From: Elusimicrobiaceae bacterium
GTDB lineage: Bacteria > Elusimicrobiota > Elusimicrobia > Elusimicrobiales > Elusimicrobiaceae
NCBI GenBank assembly: GCA_045612285.1
Contig: JAZKYS010000019.1
Span: 1,447 to 65,446, forward strand
Direction of reading: 5' to 3'
Length of the DNA: 64,000 nucleotides
A model generated the notes under the pieces. That model was given only the letters and a program-made list of their open reading frames with translations, had not been told where the DNA came from and made no database searches. Within the stretch, counting starts at the first letter, position 1. Every line of letters begins with the position of its first letter. Shown here one piece after another: positions 3,085 through 56,906 of the stretch. Both the position numbers and the translations under genes were made by a program.

Positions 3085-3093
3085 TGATATACT
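3085..3093 (+). promoter_or_regulatory. Extended -10 promoter element (TGaTATACT) driving leader RNA copy A
   Basis: The same TGnTATACT lies at the same distance from the conserved 5' hairpin in all three leader copies. It resembles the AAATTT(A/G)nTATAAT motif upstream of smc, the activase and clpC. Confidence 0.55.
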
Positions 3094-3098
3094 AAAAA

Positions 3099-3340
3099 TG
3101 TAAGTATTTTTTTACTTACATAAAAATTTAATCTGTTTTTGGATGCCGAAAGGCTGCTTTTACATAAGTAAAAGTGTATTCAAATCCCAAAACAGCTGTT
3201 ATAGGTGTATAACACAAAGTCTAATTAACTTTTGTGATATACGCTGAATGTTTGCATATGCAAACTACGGCTGTTATATTTAGGGCATTGAATACACTTA
3301 AATATAAAAGCCGTTTTTTATGCTCCGAAAACCTGTTTAA
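3099..3340 (+). ncRNA. Structured 5' leader RNA, copy A (candidate cis-regulatory RNA of pilin-like gene)
   Basis: 5' hairpin 3100-3106/3113-3119, then invariant TAAAAATTTAATCTGTTTTTGGA at 3121-3143. Hairpins at 3145-3154, 3157-3174, 3205-3242 and 3250-3265. Long-range pair 3174-3183/3288-3297, helix 3267-3281/3300-3314, closing pair 3133-3143/3324-3335. All helices covary with copies B and C. Confidence 0.7.
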
Positions 3341-3354
3341 AAGGAGTATAAAAA

Positions 3355-3873
3355 ATGAATATAGTTTCAAAAAAAACAAAAGGCTTTACCTTAATTGAAT
3401 TATTAGTTGTAGTTTTGATTATCGGTATTTTGGCGGCTATTGCCGTGCCGCAATATGAAAAAGCTGTTTTAAATAGCAGATTAACACAATATATTGTCTA
3501 TATGGATGCCTTAAGAAAAGGTGCTGACCTTTATTATTTAGCTAATGGTAAAATGACTAATGATGTCCGGGATCTTGATATAGATGTTGAACCCAATGCG
3601 ATAACATTTAAAACTTCAACTATATCCCCCCTCGCAACGGGTGTTTTTTTTAAAGATGGACTTGAGTGTATGGTCCACTTTCAAGACATAGCTTGCCTTG
3701 GAAAAGATTTCTATTTACTATCTAGTCATTCCTGGAGAAATACTCCTTTTCAAGGAATTATTTGTTTTGGAAAAAATAACAAAAAAGCAGAAGAAATTTG
3801 TAAATCAAAATCCAATGGGATATCTGTTTATTATCACGAAAATTTCCAATCAAATGGATATAGGCTACAATAA
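3355..3873 (+). CDS. Prepilin-type N-terminal cleavage/methylation domain protein (type IV pilin/pseudopilin-like)
   Basis: KG|[24 protein letters not shown] motif, SD AAGGAG at 3341-3346, and a divergent Cys-containing C-terminal domain. Confidence 0.85.
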   Translation: MNIVSKKTKGFTLIELLVVVLIIGILAAIAVPQYEKAVLNSRLTQYIVYMDALRKGADLYYLANGKMTNDVRDLDIDVEPNAITFKTSTISPLATGVFFKDGLECMVHFQDIACLGKDFYLLSSHSWRNTPFQGIICFGKNNKKAEEICKSKSNGISVYYHENFQSNGYRLQ

Positions 3874-13450: not shown

Positions 13451-13637
13451 ATATAAAAATATTCTCTAATCTTATTTTATCATTTTTGGCTTTTACTTGC
13501 TAGATTTTATTTCATCTCATCATCCTACAAAAATGTTATAGCTTTTACTTTGTAAAAGTAATTTATTTACTACTGTTTTTACAAATATCTTATTTTTTCA
13601 GTCGGTAATATTTTTATTTATCGTCGTAGAAATTGAC

Positions 13638-13663
13638 TTGATTTTCAAAAAAAAAAATAAAAT
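13638..13663 (+). promoter_or_regulatory. Candidate promoter with A11 tract in spacer (TTGATT-ttc-A11-TAAAAT)
   Basis: -35-like TTGATT at 13638-13643, A11 at 13647-13657, -10-like TAAAAT at 13658-13663. Near-identical block at 32121-32147 upstream of another pilin-like gene. Confidence 0.5.
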
Positions 13664-13751: not shown

Positions 13752-14243
13752 ATGAAAACAAATAAAGGGTTTACTTTAATTGAATTATTAGTAGTAGTCT
13801 TAATTATAGGTATTTTAGCAGCTATTGCCCTACCGAAATATCAAGTAGCTGTAGTTAAAAGCCGTTATTCCACAATGAAAGAATTAGCTAATTCTATTAA
13901 AGAAGCACAAGAAGTATATTATTTAGCCCACGGAGAATATGCCGCAACTTTGCCAGAATTAGATATTACACTTGGCGATAGCACAACTGATAAACAAGAA
14001 TACCCTTGGGGTTATTGTGCCATTGAAAAAAACAATGCTCTTGTTTATTGTGCAAACACTCAAATAGGTATGGAATATCAAATAATTTTTAATAATCACC
14101 CAGCTACTTCAATAGCAGGGAAGCGCCAATGCGTAGCTTACGGCAATGATTTATCTGCCCCTAATCATAGTATTTGTAAACAAGAAACAGGCTTAGTTAA
14201 TCCAACAAGTCCAGGTCAAAAACACAGCATTTATAATTACTAA
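13752..14243 (+). CDS. Prepilin-type N-terminal cleavage/methylation domain protein (pilin-like)
   Basis: Start moved to ATG 13752 (MKTNKG|[24 protein letters not shown]) behind SD AAGGAAAAGGAG. The TTG 13638 extension in the ORF track covers the promoter region. Confidence 0.85.
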
Positions 14244-23044: not shown

Positions 23045-23485
23045 TTATTTATAAACCCAAGCCTTGTATCCAGTACCATTAATAGGAGTAGAACCTGTTT
23101 CTTGGGCACATATTTTTTCGCCCATTTCGTCAATGGATATGCATTTTCTGCGTTTATTTGAATATTCAATCTGATATTGAAGATAGGGATTTGAAGAAAT
23201 AAAGCATCCTATTTGGGCTTGTCCTTCCAACCAACAATTCCCCCCTTCATAATAGCCACTATTTGGAATTGCTATATCTAAATCTTTATAATTTGTTGCG
23301 TATTTTCCATTTGCCAGATAATAAACATCTTGGGCGGAAACAACACTTTCCGCGAACATTTTTAACTGCACATATCTGCTTTTAGCAACTGCCATTTGAT
23401 ATTTTGGAACAGCAATAGCCGCCAAAATACCGATTATTAAAACAACGACTAATAACTCTATTAGCGTGAACGCGCGGTTTTTCAT
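23045..23485 (-). CDS. Prepilin-type N-terminal cleavage/methylation domain protein (pilin-like)
   Basis: MKNRA|[24 protein letters not shown] with SD AAGAGG. Confidence 0.85.
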   Translation of the reverse strand: MKNRAFTLIELLVVVLIIGILAAIAVPKYQMAVAKSRYVQLKMFAESVVSAQDVYYLANGKYATNYKDLDIAIPNSGYYEGGNCWLEGQAQIGCFISSNPYLQYQIEYSNKRRKCISIDEMGEKICAQETGSTPINGTGYKAWVYK

Positions 23486-23522: not shown

Positions 23523-23550
23523 AGTTTATCAAAAAAAAAAAAATACACAA
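23523..23550 (-). promoter_or_regulatory. Candidate promoter with T13 tract in spacer (TTGTGT-a-T13-ga-TAAACT on minus strand)
   Basis: -35-like at 23545-23550, homopolymer at 23531-23543, -10-like at 23523-23528, spacer 16 nt. About 38 nt upstream of the pilin-like start. Homologous block at 32032-32058. Confidence 0.5.
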
Positions 23551-31074: not shown

Positions 31075-31326
31075 TTTACTTCAGCTTTTGCGTTTATATT
31101 GCGTTGCGCGTCGCTCACATATGCGGGGTTGCCACCCGCTCAAGGTATACCTCATTTCTAAAAGCGCTTTTTCTAAAAGAAAAAGTTAATTAAAATTTAC
31201 TCAAAAATCCTTGTAAAACAATTTGCTCTATATAATCTTATCTAAACACAAAATCTTCGTAAAAACTTTGTATTCTGTTTAGCAAAATTAAAACGCAAAA
31301 TCCTTGTAAAACTTTATGCTGTGTTT
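31075..31326 (-). repeat. Rod-like intergenic repeat element, locus R1 (three 5' boxes, one GGCA-loop hairpin, conserved tail)
   Basis: Minus-strand reading has boxes TTTTACAAGGATTTT (31297-31311), TTTTTACGAAGATTTT (31250-31265) and TTTTACAAGGATTTTT (31203-18). Hairpin GCGGGT-GGCA-ACCCCGC at about 31117-31152. Tail ...AAACGCAAAAGCTGAAGTAAA ends at 31075. Outer helix 31086-31095/31291-31300. Confidence 0.7.
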
Positions 31327-31354: not shown

Positions 31355-31891
31355 TTATTGAAATTCATATAATGGATATCCGCTATATCTTTCTTCCTCT
31401 ATCAAATGTCCTAATGATTGACAAATTTTTGTACCTAATTGACTAGAATTTTGTCCCATACAACGAAATTTACCCGGTCTAGACCATGAAATATAAGACT
31501 GATATTTACTTCCAAGTCCTATCTGGAAATCTCTATAAGGTTTACATGTAGAAAAATCATCACTACGACCAGGGCAATAACTAGCCAATAATACAAAGTT
31601 TGAAACAGACCATTCTATAAAAAAATCTCCGCATTTAAATGTTGCGCCTGAAATACGAGAACAAGCAGAGGGTAATTCTATATCTAAATCAGATAAATCA
31701 TTTGTATAACTTCCATTTGCTAAATAAAAAAGTTCCTCTGCTTGCACTATATTAGCCATCAATGGCAATATTGTGGAAACTTCCGATTTTACAGCTGCTA
31801 CACGATATTTGGGAACGGCAATTGCTACCAAAATACCAATAATTAAAACTACGACTAACAACTCTATAAGCGTGAAGGCACGGTTTTTCAT
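31355..31891 (-). CDS. Prepilin-type N-terminal cleavage/methylation domain protein (pilin-like)
   Basis: MKNRA|[24 protein letters not shown] with SD AAGAGG. Confidence 0.85.
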   Translation of the reverse strand: MKNRAFTLIELLVVVLIIGILVAIAVPKYRVAAVKSEVSTILPLMANIVQAEELFYLANGSYTNDLSDLDIELPSACSRISGATFKCGDFFIEWSVSNFVLLASYCPGRSDDFSTCKPYRDFQIGLGSKYQSYISWSRPGKFRCMGQNSSQLGTKICQSLGHLIEEERYSGYPLYEFQ

Positions 31892-32031
31892 ACTTTTTTA
31901 CCTCTTTTTTTCTTTTGTTCAATCGTCATTCCGGAAGGTTTTTGTCCGGAATCTCTACCGATTTTATTTTTTAAAAAATAGGAAGAGATACTGAGCAAAA
32001 ACTCCTCAGTATGACTTTATTTCATAAAGTC

Positions 32032-32058
32032 AGTTTATCAAAAAAAAAAAATACGCAA
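32032..32058 (-). promoter_or_regulatory. Candidate promoter with T12 tract in spacer (TTGCGT-a-T12-ga-TAAACT on minus strand)
   Basis: -35-like at 32053-32058, homopolymer at 32040-32051, -10-like at 32032-32037, spacer 15 nt. Homologous to the 23523-23550 block. Confidence 0.45.
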
Positions 32059-32120
32059 GCGCCCTGCTAAGACGAAGAAAAAAGCAAAAAAAGAAGAAAT
32101 ATCGTCGTAAAACAAAAAAC

Positions 32121-32147
32121 TTGATTTTCAAAAAAAAAAAAATAAAA
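32121..32147 (+). promoter_or_regulatory. Candidate promoter with A12 tract in spacer (TTGATT-ttc-A12-TAAAAT)
   Basis: TTGATT at 32121-32126, A12 at 32130-32141, TAAAAT at 32142-32147. The upstream ATCGTCGTA block is shared with 13621-13663. Confidence 0.5.
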
Positions 32148-32190
32148 TTTAATTTGTTAAGTCAATAAAACAATAGGAGAAAAAACATTT

Positions 32191-32709
32191 ATGAAATCAA
32201 ATAAAGGGTTTACACTTATAGAATTATTAGTCGTTGTCTTAATTATCGGTATTTTGGCGGCTATTGCTGTTCCGCAATATCAAATAGCTGTTGAAAAATC
32301 TAGATATTCCACCATAAAAGCCAAAACAAGAGCTATCGGTGAAGCCGTTAACAGATATTATCTTACAAAAGGTTCTTACCCCAGAGAATTTGGAGAGCTT
32401 GATATTTCTTTGTCAGATATTATAGACGCACCAAGAGTGTCCGAGGAAGCAGGCGGTTTTAGTGTTACATTTAAAACATCCAAAGGATATTCTGAGTGCT
32501 ACATATGGAGATATAATATTTTTTCTCAACTTTATTGTAGTGTTAATAACAATAAAATGCTCTTTTATTTTAATCACAAAACTATTGCTCCCAGTTTATG
32601 TAGTACTAAGAAAGACTATGAAATCGGACACAAAGTTTGCCAACAGGAAACAGGTAAAACAAAAGAAGAAGGTGAGGAATCCGGTAATTATTTTATTTAT
32701 GCTTATTAA
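32191..32709 (+). CDS. Prepilin-type N-terminal cleavage/methylation domain protein (pilin-like)
   Basis: MKSNKG|[24 protein letters not shown] with SD AGGAGA. Confidence 0.85.
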   Translation: MKSNKGFTLIELLVVVLIIGILAAIAVPQYQIAVEKSRYSTIKAKTRAIGEAVNRYYLTKGSYPREFGELDISLSDIIDAPRVSEEAGGFSVTFKTSKGYSECYIWRYNIFSQLYCSVNNNKMLFYFNHKTIAPSLCSTKKDYEIGHKVCQQETGKTKEEGEESGNYFIYAY

Positions 32710-37660: not shown

Positions 37661-38025
37661 CAAAGCAAATGATTTTGCAAGGATTTTTGTGGAAATTTTA
37701 ATTAACTTTTTCTTTTAGAAAAAAGCGGTTCTTTCAAACGAGGTATACCAAGAGGGGGCGGCAGCCCCGAGTATCCGAAGGCTTTAAAAAATAAAAACTA
37801 GTCCAAAAGCCGAAGTAAAAGTTTTGCGAGGATTTTGCGTTTAGAGAACGAAACAAATTTTATCTAAACAGAGCATATAGTTTTACGAGTATTTTGAGGT
37901 TAGTTTTAATTAATTTTTTCTAAAGAAAAAATGTTTTAAAAAATGAGGTATACCTAGAGCGGACGGCAGTCCCGCGTATCCGAAATTTTTTAAAAATTAA
38001 AACTAGCCCAAAAGACGAAGTAAAA
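37661..38025 (+). repeat. Rod-like intergenic repeat elements, locus R2 (two tandem full units plus a partial unit)
   Basis: Unit 1 is 37661-37820 and unit 2 is 37866-38025, with about 75% identity. GGCA-loop hairpins at 37740-37779 and 37945-37984. Unit 2 outer helix 37901-37911/37995-38005 (11/11). Box 37881-37896 is complementary to tail 38009-38025. Confidence 0.75.
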
Positions 38026-42319: not shown

Positions 42320-42521
42320 TTTTTACAAGGATTTTTCATTTAGAACAAATCTAGTTTTGCAAGGATTTTTTAGATAAATTAAATTTAAACAGAGCGAATT
42401 ATTTTATCAAGTATTTTGATTTTAGAGAAGGCGCAAGGAGCGAAGCATATCCCGAGAGGGTGGCAACCCCGTATATGTGAGCGACGAGCAACGAACTATA
42501 AAATCAAAAGACGCAGATAAC
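42320..42521 (+). repeat. Rod-like intergenic repeat element, locus R3 (three 5' boxes plus alpha-type body)
   Basis: Boxes at 42320-42336, 42355-42371 and 42402-42417. Outer helix TATTTTGATTTT 42412-42423 / AAAATCAAAAGA 42500-42511. Hairpin GGGT-GGCA-ACCC at 42446-42477. Followed by terminator 42522-42551. Confidence 0.7.
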
Positions 42522-42669: not shown

Positions 42670-42695
42670 ATTAAAAACATAAAAGTTTTTTAATT

Positions 42696-42704
42696 TGATA
42701 TACT
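42696..42704 (+). promoter_or_regulatory. Extended -10 promoter element (TGaTATACT) driving leader RNA copy B
   Basis: Same motif and spacing to the 5' hairpin as copies A and C. Confidence 0.55.
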
Positions 42705-42709
42705 AAAAT

Positions 42710-42975
42710 TGTAAGTAGTTTTTACTTACATAAAAATTTAATCTGTTTTTGGAACCTTGTAAAAACAAGGATAGCTTTTGAGAAATCAAAAGCCATAGCG
42801 AAGTCCAAGAACAGCTCGTTATTAGGCACAGGACAAACGGCTTAATTACCCGCTTGTTTTGTGCCGAGTGTTTGCCGTTCTTTTAGAACGGCAAACTACG
42901 GCTGTTATATTTTTTGGTCACTTCGCTAGGCTAAAATATAGCAGCCGTCTTTCATAAGTTCCAAAAACAGTAAGA
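42710..42975 (+). ncRNA. Structured 5' leader RNA, copy B (candidate cis-regulatory RNA of pilin-like gene)
   Basis: 5' hairpin 42711-42729, invariant 23-mer 42731-42753. Hairpins 42755-42770, 42774-42793, 42825-42865 and 42870-42896. Long-range pair 42793-42804/42920-42930, helix 42898-42913/42933-42948, and 12/12 closing helix 42743-42754/42959-42970. Confidence 0.75.
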
Positions 42976-42984
42976 GAGGAATTT

Positions 42985-43518
42985 ATGAAAAACAAAAAAG
43001 GCTTTACTCTTATTGAAATACTTGTTGTTGTTTTAATTATCGGTATTTTAGCAGCGATAGCTGTGCCGCAATATCAAAAATCAGTATGGAAAAGTAGGGC
43101 TACAGGTATGCTCTTTAATTTAAAATCACTACATGAAGCAGTTAAAGTTTATCAATTAGCAAATAGCGCAAATCCATCAAATATAAATAAATTAGATATT
43201 TCCCTTAATAATTATAAACAAGCTTGTGTAAACACAGGACCGAGTTTTACCGAATCATCTTGTAAGGCAGATAAATATTCAAATTTATTTCTAAACATAA
43301 ATACAAACACTGGAAAAGGAACCGGAGAAGTTTTTTCACAATTTAATATAGGTCCTTATAAAAGTGGCGGTTTTTCAATAGCAGGTAATACTGTTATATG
43401 TTGGGAATACCCCTCATATATTAGTTTGAAAGGAGATTTTTGTAAAAAAATAATGGGTTGCCAACCAAGATCAGGCATAACAACTGAAGGCAGGCAATTC
43501 CTCTGTCCAAATTTATAA
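42985..43518 (+). CDS. Prepilin-type N-terminal cleavage/methylation domain protein (pilin-like)
   Basis: MKNKKG|[24 protein letters not shown] with SD AGAGAGGA. Confidence 0.85.
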   Translation: MKNKKGFTLIEILVVVLIIGILAAIAVPQYQKSVWKSRATGMLFNLKSLHEAVKVYQLANSANPSNINKLDISLNNYKQACVNTGPSFTESSCKADKYSNLFLNINTNTGKGTGEVFSQFNIGPYKSGGFSIAGNTVICWEYPSYISLKGDFCKKIMGCQPRSGITTEGRQFLCPNL

Positions 43519-43641: not shown

Positions 43642-43778
43642 GACACAGAGCATATAGTTTTACAAGTATTTTGCGTTTAGAGTAGGCGCAACCGAGGAAG
43701 AGTATACTGTGAAAGGCCGGCAGGCCGAAGTATCCGACCGAGGTTGCAACGCACTATAAACGCAAAAGACGAAGTAAA
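43642..43778 (+). repeat. Rod-like intergenic repeat element, locus R4 (single alpha-type unit)
   Basis: Box at 43658-43672. Outer helix TATTTTGCGTTT 43667-43678 / AAACGCAAAAGA 43758-43769. Hairpin GGCC-GGCA-GGCC within 43700-43737. Tail ...GACGAAGTAAA ends 2 nt before the tolB stop codon. Confidence 0.7.
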
Positions 43779-43780
43779 TA

Positions 43781-56673: not shown

Positions 56674-56906
56674 AACAGAGCAAAATATTTTTGCGAGGAT
56701 TTTGGAAATAGTTTTAATTAGTTTTTCTTCTAATACCCCTTCCTTTATCCCTCCCCTAATTTTTTGCTAATGCAAAAAAGTCAAGGGAGGGAAATTAAAA
56801 GAGATGAAAAAATGATTTTAGAAATGAGGTATACCCCGAGTGGCTGGCAAGCCCGTGTATCCGAAATTTCTAAAAAATTAAAAATAGCCCAAAAGCCGAA
56901 GCAAAC
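56674..56906 (+). repeat. Rod-like intergenic repeat element, locus R5 (beta-type unit interrupted by the CCCTCCC hairpin module)
   Basis: Box at 56689-56703 and GGCA-loop hairpin (GGCT-GGCA-AGCC) at 56826-56865, with tail ...AGCCCAAAAGCCGAAGCAAA. A 56736-56792 module sits inside the loop of the TTTTTC/GAAAAA hairpin. Confidence 0.7.
56736..56792 (+). repeat. CCCTCCC/GGGAGGG hairpin module (copy 3), nested in R5
   Basis: TCCCTCCCC 56748-56756 pairs with GGGAGGGA 56785-56792. Inner hairpin TTTTTTGC-taat-GCAAAAAA. Confidence 0.6.

Follow-up and report, generated by a model that had tools for sequence, protein, structure and literature searches.

The 64-kb stretch of DNA that was analysed (64,000 nucleotides of an Elusimicrobiaceae contig, hereafter the window; G+C content 36%) carries a divergent pair of open reading frames at 31355-31891 on the minus strand and 32191-32709 on the plus strand. 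Both are intact and each has a good Shine-Dalgarno sequence. The minus gene encodes 178 amino acids beginning MKNRA/FTLIEL and the plus gene 172 amino acids beginning MKSNKG/FTLIEL, where the slash marks the prepilin peptidase site; position -1 of this site is Ala in the minus product (A/FTLIEL) and Gly in the plus product (KG/FTLIEL). The pilin-like identity that the first-pass annotation had proposed for the pair was borne out, with each product matching the N_methyl family PF07963 (E = 1.8e-07 for the minus gene, E = 1.4e-09 for the plus gene) and scoring above the cutoff of TIGR02532. Across 44 aligned homologs F7, E11 and the subsequent hydrophobic helix are invariant, as are four cysteines.

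The AF2 model of the plus-gene product (pLDDT 92.8) has a helix at residues 9-60 followed by β-strands, and its best PDB matches in Foldseek (2hi2, 5vxx and 1ay2; probability 1.00, TM 0.40-0.48) are to full-length gonococcal type IV pilin. As modelled, the protein is a pilin in fold, with a long N-terminal helix lying on a C-terminal β-sheet. No specific orthologue (GspG, PilA, ComGC and others) could be assigned to either protein, as all equivalog models scored far below their cutoffs (for GspG, 52.6 against a cutoff of 88.85).

Between the two genes lie two separate, non-overlapping divergent promoters, as predicted from their hexamers, in each of which an A/T homopolymer forms the spacer between the -35 and -10 boxes; the back-to-back arrangement described at first pass is thereby upheld. 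The promoter of the minus gene (32032-32058, minus strand) reads TTGCGT-a-T12-ga-TAAACT exactly as claimed, with the -35 box at 32058-32053, the tract (A12 on the forward strand) at 32040-32051, the -10 box at 32037-32032 and a spacer of 15 nt. The plus-gene tract had been given as A12 at 32130-32141 with a spacer of the same length, but it is in fact A13 at 32130-32142. In this promoter (32121-32148, plus strand), TTGATT at 32121-32126 and TAAAAT at 32143-32148 are separated by ttc-A13, or 16 nt, and the two promoters are therefore not in the same state. In both, the uninterrupted homopolymer makes up nearly the whole spacer. The tracts are 78 nt apart and the -35 boxes, which are directed away from each other, 62 nt apart.

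The window contains six pilin-like genes, about one per 10 kb, and two types of tract cassette. Type 1, cTTGATTttc-A(n)-TAAAAT, is found at 32130 (A13) and at 13647 (A11), and type 2, TTG[CT]GT-a-T(n)-ga-TAAACT, at 32040 (T12) and at 23531 (T13). The second type-1 promoter (13638-13663, plus strand; TTGATT-ttc-A11-TAAAAT, 14-nt spacer) serves the pilin-like gene 13752-14243, and the second type-2 promoter (23523-23550, minus strand; TTGTGT-a-T13-ga-TAAACT, 16-nt spacer) serves the pilin-like gene 23045-23485. The pilin-like genes at 3355-3873 and 42985-43518 have no tract promoter.

Exactly four A/T runs in the 64-kb window are longer than 8 nt (11, 12, 13 and 13 nt). In every case they separate a -35-like from a -10-like hexamer, and they have conserved flanks and lie 5′ of four of the six N_methyl genes. 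An argument from a simple excess of long A-runs was dropped because dinucleotide-preserving shuffles yield equal numbers (9 A11 matches observed against a mean of 13, no excess); the run-length spectrum and the placement of the runs were used in place of the bare count. At lengths of 5, 6, 7 and 8 nt the window holds 515, 208, 69 and 16 A/T runs, and at 9-10 nt it holds none, against 28.7 expected under a first-order Markov model of the window. Runs of at least 7 nt are strongly depleted relative to this model (at 8 nt, 16 versus 44). The placement and context of the four long runs are far from chance, although their bare count is not, and the spectrum suggests genome-wide selection against slippage-prone tracts except at pilin promoters. 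Outside the promoter tracts, one of the longest runs is A8 at 3369-3376, within the first codons (KKT) of the pilin-like gene 3355-3873, a possible weak site of translational slippage.

Neither the two pilins nor the two housekeeping neighbours had an identical protein on record in exact-match look-ups, and the comparison was therefore made with homologs from other species. The related loci, which lie in MAGs from animal guts and rumen, place the window in the Elusimicrobiaceae. A pattern scan of metagenomes gave many unrelated A8-A9 matches, and only pure-tract, pilin-linked matches were kept. Type-1 and type-2 cassettes were found 5′ of pilin-like genes in the Elusimicrobiaceae MAGs L001-L004, L006, L008 and L010, where the pilins are about 35-60% identical to the window pilin, and also in rumen and gut metagenome contigs. 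At least 37 distinct pilin-linked tract promoters were collected from several Elusimicrobiaceae lineages and independent assemblies. The type-2 cassette of the minus gene recurs, apart from its second copy in the window, in L001, L002, L006, L072, L083, L097, L168 and L171; the type-1 cassette of the plus gene is identical in at least 16 further pilin-linked promoters and in its ortholog on contig L182. A third type, TTGACT-tg-T(n)-ga-TAAAAT, occurs in yet another species.

Total spacer length among the 37 promoters listed is 16 nt in 27, 15 nt in 4, and 17, 14 and 12 nt in 2 each, one of the two 12-nt spacers being truncated at the edge of its contig. In this set, flanks that contribute 3 nt go with a modal tract of 13 nt, and flanks that contribute 4 nt with one of 12 nt. 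Tract length thus offsets flank bases such that total spacing is conserved, as would be expected of real promoter hexamers, and this compensation is the strongest argument for reading the putative hexamers as spaced elements and the tract as their spacer. Conservation and the constant total spacer over at least 37 promoters likewise support the assignment of these hexamers as probable -35 and -10 boxes. Genes behind tracts of off-mode length are intact open reading frames. In a related MAG without a tract (L011), TTGTAT-N16-TAAACT lies 5′ of a pilin gene. A rough survey of candidate housekeeping promoters in the window gave matches too few to be informative, with spacers spread over 13-19 nt. 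One variant, TTGACT-tc-A10-TAGAAT with a 12-nt spacer, is identical in five contigs (L183-L187, at about 1450-1459) and could be either a locked-off copy or a differently working promoter.

At least nine loci show the divergent pairing of a type-1 with a type-2 promoter, their tracts lying 66-236 nt apart. Three of the nine paired loci listed share a near-identical module of about 120 nt that carries both promoters, with copies of an upstream motif, one per promoter, in mirror orientation. Promoter type also goes with the start of the protein. Pilins linked to type-2 (T-tract) promoters, the class to which the minus gene 31355 belongs, all begin MKN[RQK]A/FTLIEL, with Ala at -1 in place of the near-universal Gly (window 31877-31891 and 23471-23485; L001, L002, L006, L072, L083 and L097), and those linked to type-1 promoters have KG/FTLIEL at their start. 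Because signal-peptide type tracks promoter type, both travel as one cassette. Judged by these comparisons, the tract-promoter design is not special to the 300-bp region between the two genes; it is a family-wide cassette of promoter, leader and signal peptide for many scattered pilin-like genes.

The one close ortholog found for the plus gene also bears on the history of the pair. When positions 1-92 of L182 are set against 32026-32113 of the window, homology begins at 32114, just 5′ of the type-1 cassette; upstream of that point L182 is unlike this locus and resembles the region 5′ of the window gene 23045. The unrelated upstream sequence implies that relatives have exchanged the divergent partner together with its promoter, a hint of cassette recombination.

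The minus gene is predicted to have a 5′ leader of about 134 nt (31892-32025), its start inferred from the position of the -10 box. This agrees with the roughly 130 nt of the first-pass annotation, which had placed three hairpins in the leader. Those at 31989-32013 and 31928-31952 form robustly when the predicted leader is folded, both being present in the centroid structure (leader z = -2.96). The third, at 32013-32031, was rejected as an RNA hairpin: the sequence is a perfect palindrome, GACTTTAT-gaa-ATAAAGTC, directly 3′ of the minus -10 box, and since it abuts this box it would straddle the start site and is unlikely to form a complete hairpin in the RNA. The palindrome is identical in the related contig L168 and is possibly an operator instead. 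The two leader stem-loop modules, whose loops carry CAAAAAC, are single-copy in the window and recur with 91-100% identity in other pilin leaders (L083 1314-1349, L097 915-958 and L118 758-795). Pilin leaders measure 29-42 nt without these modules and 83-188 nt with them, as if the hairpins were optional inserted modules. Neither the leaders nor the intergenic region matched an Rfam family at gathering or E-value thresholds.

Upstream of most cassettes, 10-17 nt 5′ of the -35 box, lies a motif whose core, CGTCG or CGACG, has a T-rich arm on one side and an A-rich arm on the other; it often forms a small, perfect palindrome (TTCCCGaCGGGAA or TTTTTCcgacgaGAAAAA, for example). In the window it was seen at 32100-32114 upstream of the plus promoter (TATCGTCGTAAAACA), at 13617-13632 upstream of the promoter at 13647, which shares TCGTCGTA with the plus promoter, and at 32066-32079 upstream of the minus promoter (TTCTTCGTCTTAGC, minus strand). 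The last was recognised by eye in the alignment listing, and clearer palindromes are found in L168, L188, L196 and L205. We regard the motif as a candidate binding site for a dimeric regulator common to the pilin promoters.

Tract length was compared between contigs from different samples that encode an identical pilin protein, using assembly consensus sequences. Three ortholog groups of near-identical contigs contain a tract change (L200-L204, T12/T11; L205-L207, T12/T13; L215-L218, T12/T11). In each of these alignments (1.9-2.9 kb, with 1-3 SNPs) the promoter tract is the sole indel column, a change of ±1 which, in 11-13 nt homopolymers of an assembly consensus, could possibly stem from assembly or sequencing errors; homopolymers of 7-8 nt in the same three alignments do not vary. 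In sample ERZ27298278 the tract is T11 at one locus but T13 at a second, an indication that loci change independently. Three other ortholog groups are without slippage-type change, at A10 (5 contigs), T12 (4 contigs) and A12 (4 contigs, plus one A13 that arose by substitution). For the locus described here, the minus promoter has T12 in the window and T13 in its roughly 87%-identical relative L168, and comparison of the plus gene with the one close ortholog found (L182, 97% amino acid identity) gave no tract polymorphism, with A13 in both. The invariant groups and the A13 of L182 count against switching by slippage. Contigs that end at tracts (L195, L199, L207, L218 and L171) were not counted as evidence of heterogeneity because the cassettes are repeats, and repeats can break assemblies.

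The promoter anatomy, its conservation, the constant total spacer and the tract-only indels between near-identical contigs are best explained, with a probability that we put at about 0.6, by σ70-type promoters with a slippage-prone homopolymer spacer that would give each pilin gene independent stochastic ON/OFF or graded control. Slipped-strand events during replication would add or remove one base in the tract, so that the distance between the hexamers departs from, or returns to, the 16 nt preferred in the family, and the altered spacing would change transcription of that gene, in ON/OFF or stepwise fashion, independent of its neighbour. The plus gene (A13, spacer 16) would then be in the modal state and presumably active, and so would the pilin gene 23045 (T13, spacer 16) be in the modal state; the minus gene (T12, spacer 15) would stand one step off the mode and the pilin gene 13752 (A11, spacer 14) two steps off. 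Here we infer promoter activity, start sites, the ON length, and the rate and reversibility of switching.

The most serious competitor, which we consider unlikely but far from negligible, is that the tract is a fixed structural element: a rigid, easily melted A-tract of set length that makes a good 16-nt spacer or a nucleoid-protein surface, with length changes as rare, mildly harmful accidents. A spacer of exactly 16 nt in 73% of the promoters listed would fit a fixed, selected spacer equally well, as would the several invariant ortholog groups and the identity of L182 and the window at A13. The homopolymeric T-tract beside the -10 box of the Mycoplasma agalactiae vpma promoter, moreover, was shown not to contribute to variation (PMC2268961), which counts against a switching reading. 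On the other hand, the non-homopolymeric 16-nt spacer of L011 serves the same hexamers, which means that function does not depend on a homopolymer, and runs longer than 8 nt are otherwise purged, yet perfect runs of 11-14 nt are kept here across divergent lineages whose pilins are about 40% identical. Off-mode lengths at 10 of the 37 promoters listed, before intact genes, and the restriction of indels between near-identical contigs to the tract also speak for slippage-prone spacers over fixed ones.

Two further explanations can be weighed against the same comparative data. In type-2 promoters the real -35 box might be TTGATA (the last two tract T plus GATA), with a -10 box further 3′ (TAAAGT here, TTTAAT in paralogs), and the tract, now upstream of the -35 box, would tune phasing with the CG-core motif, as in Helicobacter pylori sabA. 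A consensus scan does list a tract-independent TTGATA-16-TAAAGT at 32041-32014 for the minus gene, paralogs have TTGATA or TTGCTA followed by N15-16 and TTTAAT, and a conserved motif does lie 5′ of the tract cassettes. We nevertheless find this reading improbable, as type-3 cassettes (TTGACT-tg-T12-ga-TAAAAT) have no such downstream alternative, leaders would shrink to 10-13 nt in many paralogs, and the modal type-3 tract is shorter by a single base, just enough to make up for the one additional base in its flanks, which is sensible only with TTGNNN and TAAANT as the spaced elements. Least credible, and already contradicted by what the sequence comparisons indicate, is that the tracts are low-complexity sequence expected by chance in an AT-rich genome, arose as an assembly artefact, or form an intrinsic terminator of antisense transcription (stem 32067-32055 followed by the T-run). 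Shuffled sequence does match the A11 count, and a scan did flag a weak terminator-like hairpin with a T-run. However, the 37 promoters listed, from independent assemblies, have conserved flanks and a constant position with respect to the pilin genes, 9-10 nt runs are absent from the window, and the terminator was rejected because its 5-bp stem is missing at the paralogous promoter 23531 and at other loci.

Among known systems, the closest analogue of the proposed slippage-prone pilin promoters is vlp of Mycoplasma hyorhinis, for which PMC2268961, citing Citti & Wise 1995, describes a -35/-10 spacer that contains a poly-A tract. According to the same paper, indels in the spacer switch not only vlp but also maa2 of M. 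arthritidis and vmm of M. mycoides. As in vlp, a homopolymer or repeat of A/T serves as promoter spacer, the genes of a multigene surface-protein family carry one tract apiece, which here would allow combinatorial expression, and a conserved module of promoter and signal peptide precedes variable mature regions. Here, however, the host is not a mollicute but a diderm from the phylum Elusimicrobiota; prepilin-type proteins take the place of lipoproteins, the genes are not clustered but scattered singly or in divergent pairs among housekeeping genes, and both A- and T-oriented tracts are present. Furthermore, vlp switching was shown experimentally, whereas switching in Elusimicrobiaceae is deduced from sequence.

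In Bordetella pertussis, a poly-C stretch is said, from work by Willems and colleagues in 1990, to lie in the fimbrial subunit promoters of fim2 and fim3. There, as proposed here, independent homopolymer-controlled promoters of alternative fimbrial subunits give combinations of expression, although the tract is C rather than A/T, the structures are chaperone-usher fimbriae rather than type IV-like pilins, and two to three genes are involved rather than dozens. BvgA is the shared upstream regulator in Bordetella, and the candidate conserved CG-core palindrome 5′ of the -35 box is its possible counterpart in the pilin promoters. For Haemophilus influenzae, an entry listed in PMC11868660 (van Ham et al. 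1993) places TA repeats in the combined divergent promoter of hifA and hifB. The hif locus resembles this one in its divergent fimbrial genes and in repeat-length changes within the spacer of an intergenic promoter region. Its single TA tract serves two overlapping promoters, however, and the genes switch together, whereas at this and the other paired loci the two homopolymers are separate and each lies between -35 and -10 boxes of its own. The distances between the tracts and between the -35 boxes allow independent states, unlike in hif.

A T-tract in H. pylori sabA was reportedly described as a 'rheostat' by Åberg and colleagues in 2014, and the porA and opc promoters of Neisseria meningitidis have poly-G/C spacers. 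In these cases too, the transcript level of a surface adhesin or porin is graded by the length of a homopolymer that lies within or next to the core promoter. The sabA tract, unlike those described here, lies 5′ of the -35 box and acts via phasing with UP-like elements, the Neisseria tracts are G/C, and no large pilin family is involved. As in other promoter-spacer contingency loci, an uninterrupted, slip-capable tract lies between the -35 and -10 boxes of both promoters (T12 and A13), and within the wider family a ±1 tract polymorphism is seen in three ortholog groups, at the level of assembly consensus. Searches of the available literature library found no report that ties Elusimicrobia pilins to homopolymer tracts or phase variation. 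The mechanism itself is classical, indeed textbook. What is new, and gives the observation its value, is the phylum, the gene family, the set of three cassette types that share a conserved total spacer, and the apparent scale.

To our knowledge nothing is known of surface management in the Elusimicrobiota, a widespread phylum of gut bacteria that has barely been cultivated. Conserved, family-wide slippage-prone promoters on so large a family of pilin-like genes would explain why so many pilin paralogs are retained and would suggest that host, phage or protist pressure lies behind surface variation. More tentatively, and at somewhat less than even odds, gut and rumen Elusimicrobiaceae may possess a genome-wide pilin 'phasome', in which dozens of pilin-like genes scattered among housekeeping genes would each have their own mutable A/T-tract cassette and a common upstream palindromic regulator site, such that every cell would express a random subset of a large repertoire of pilins. 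If this is true, no earlier contingency-locus system would have been described in the phylum, and type IV-like pilin diversity would for the first time be traced to promoter-spacer homopolymers. The tracts could also provide a ready marker of population heterogeneity in metagenomes. On the practical side, assemblies break or differ at the tracts, and gene callers move the predicted start codon when the tract shifts (as between L215 and L216).

Finally, we note repeated sequences elsewhere in the window. The two tract-less pilin genes, 3355-3873 and 42985-43518, have about 270 nt of upstream sequence in common (3085-3354 and 42690-42984; 80% column identity), which holds a hairpin (TGTAAGTA...TACTTACA) and a block, GCAAACTACGGCTGTTATAT. 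This shared region matched no Rfam family and may be a novel structured leader RNA; a block similar to GCAAACTACGGCTGTTATAT lies 5′ of a tract-less pilin in another species (L208). An intergenic repeat family of 80-92% identity occurs at 31085-31324, 3′ of the minus gene 31355, and at 37664-37979, 42321-42510, 43645-43779 and 56806-56855, and is also present in the metagenome contigs L094, L114 and L168.
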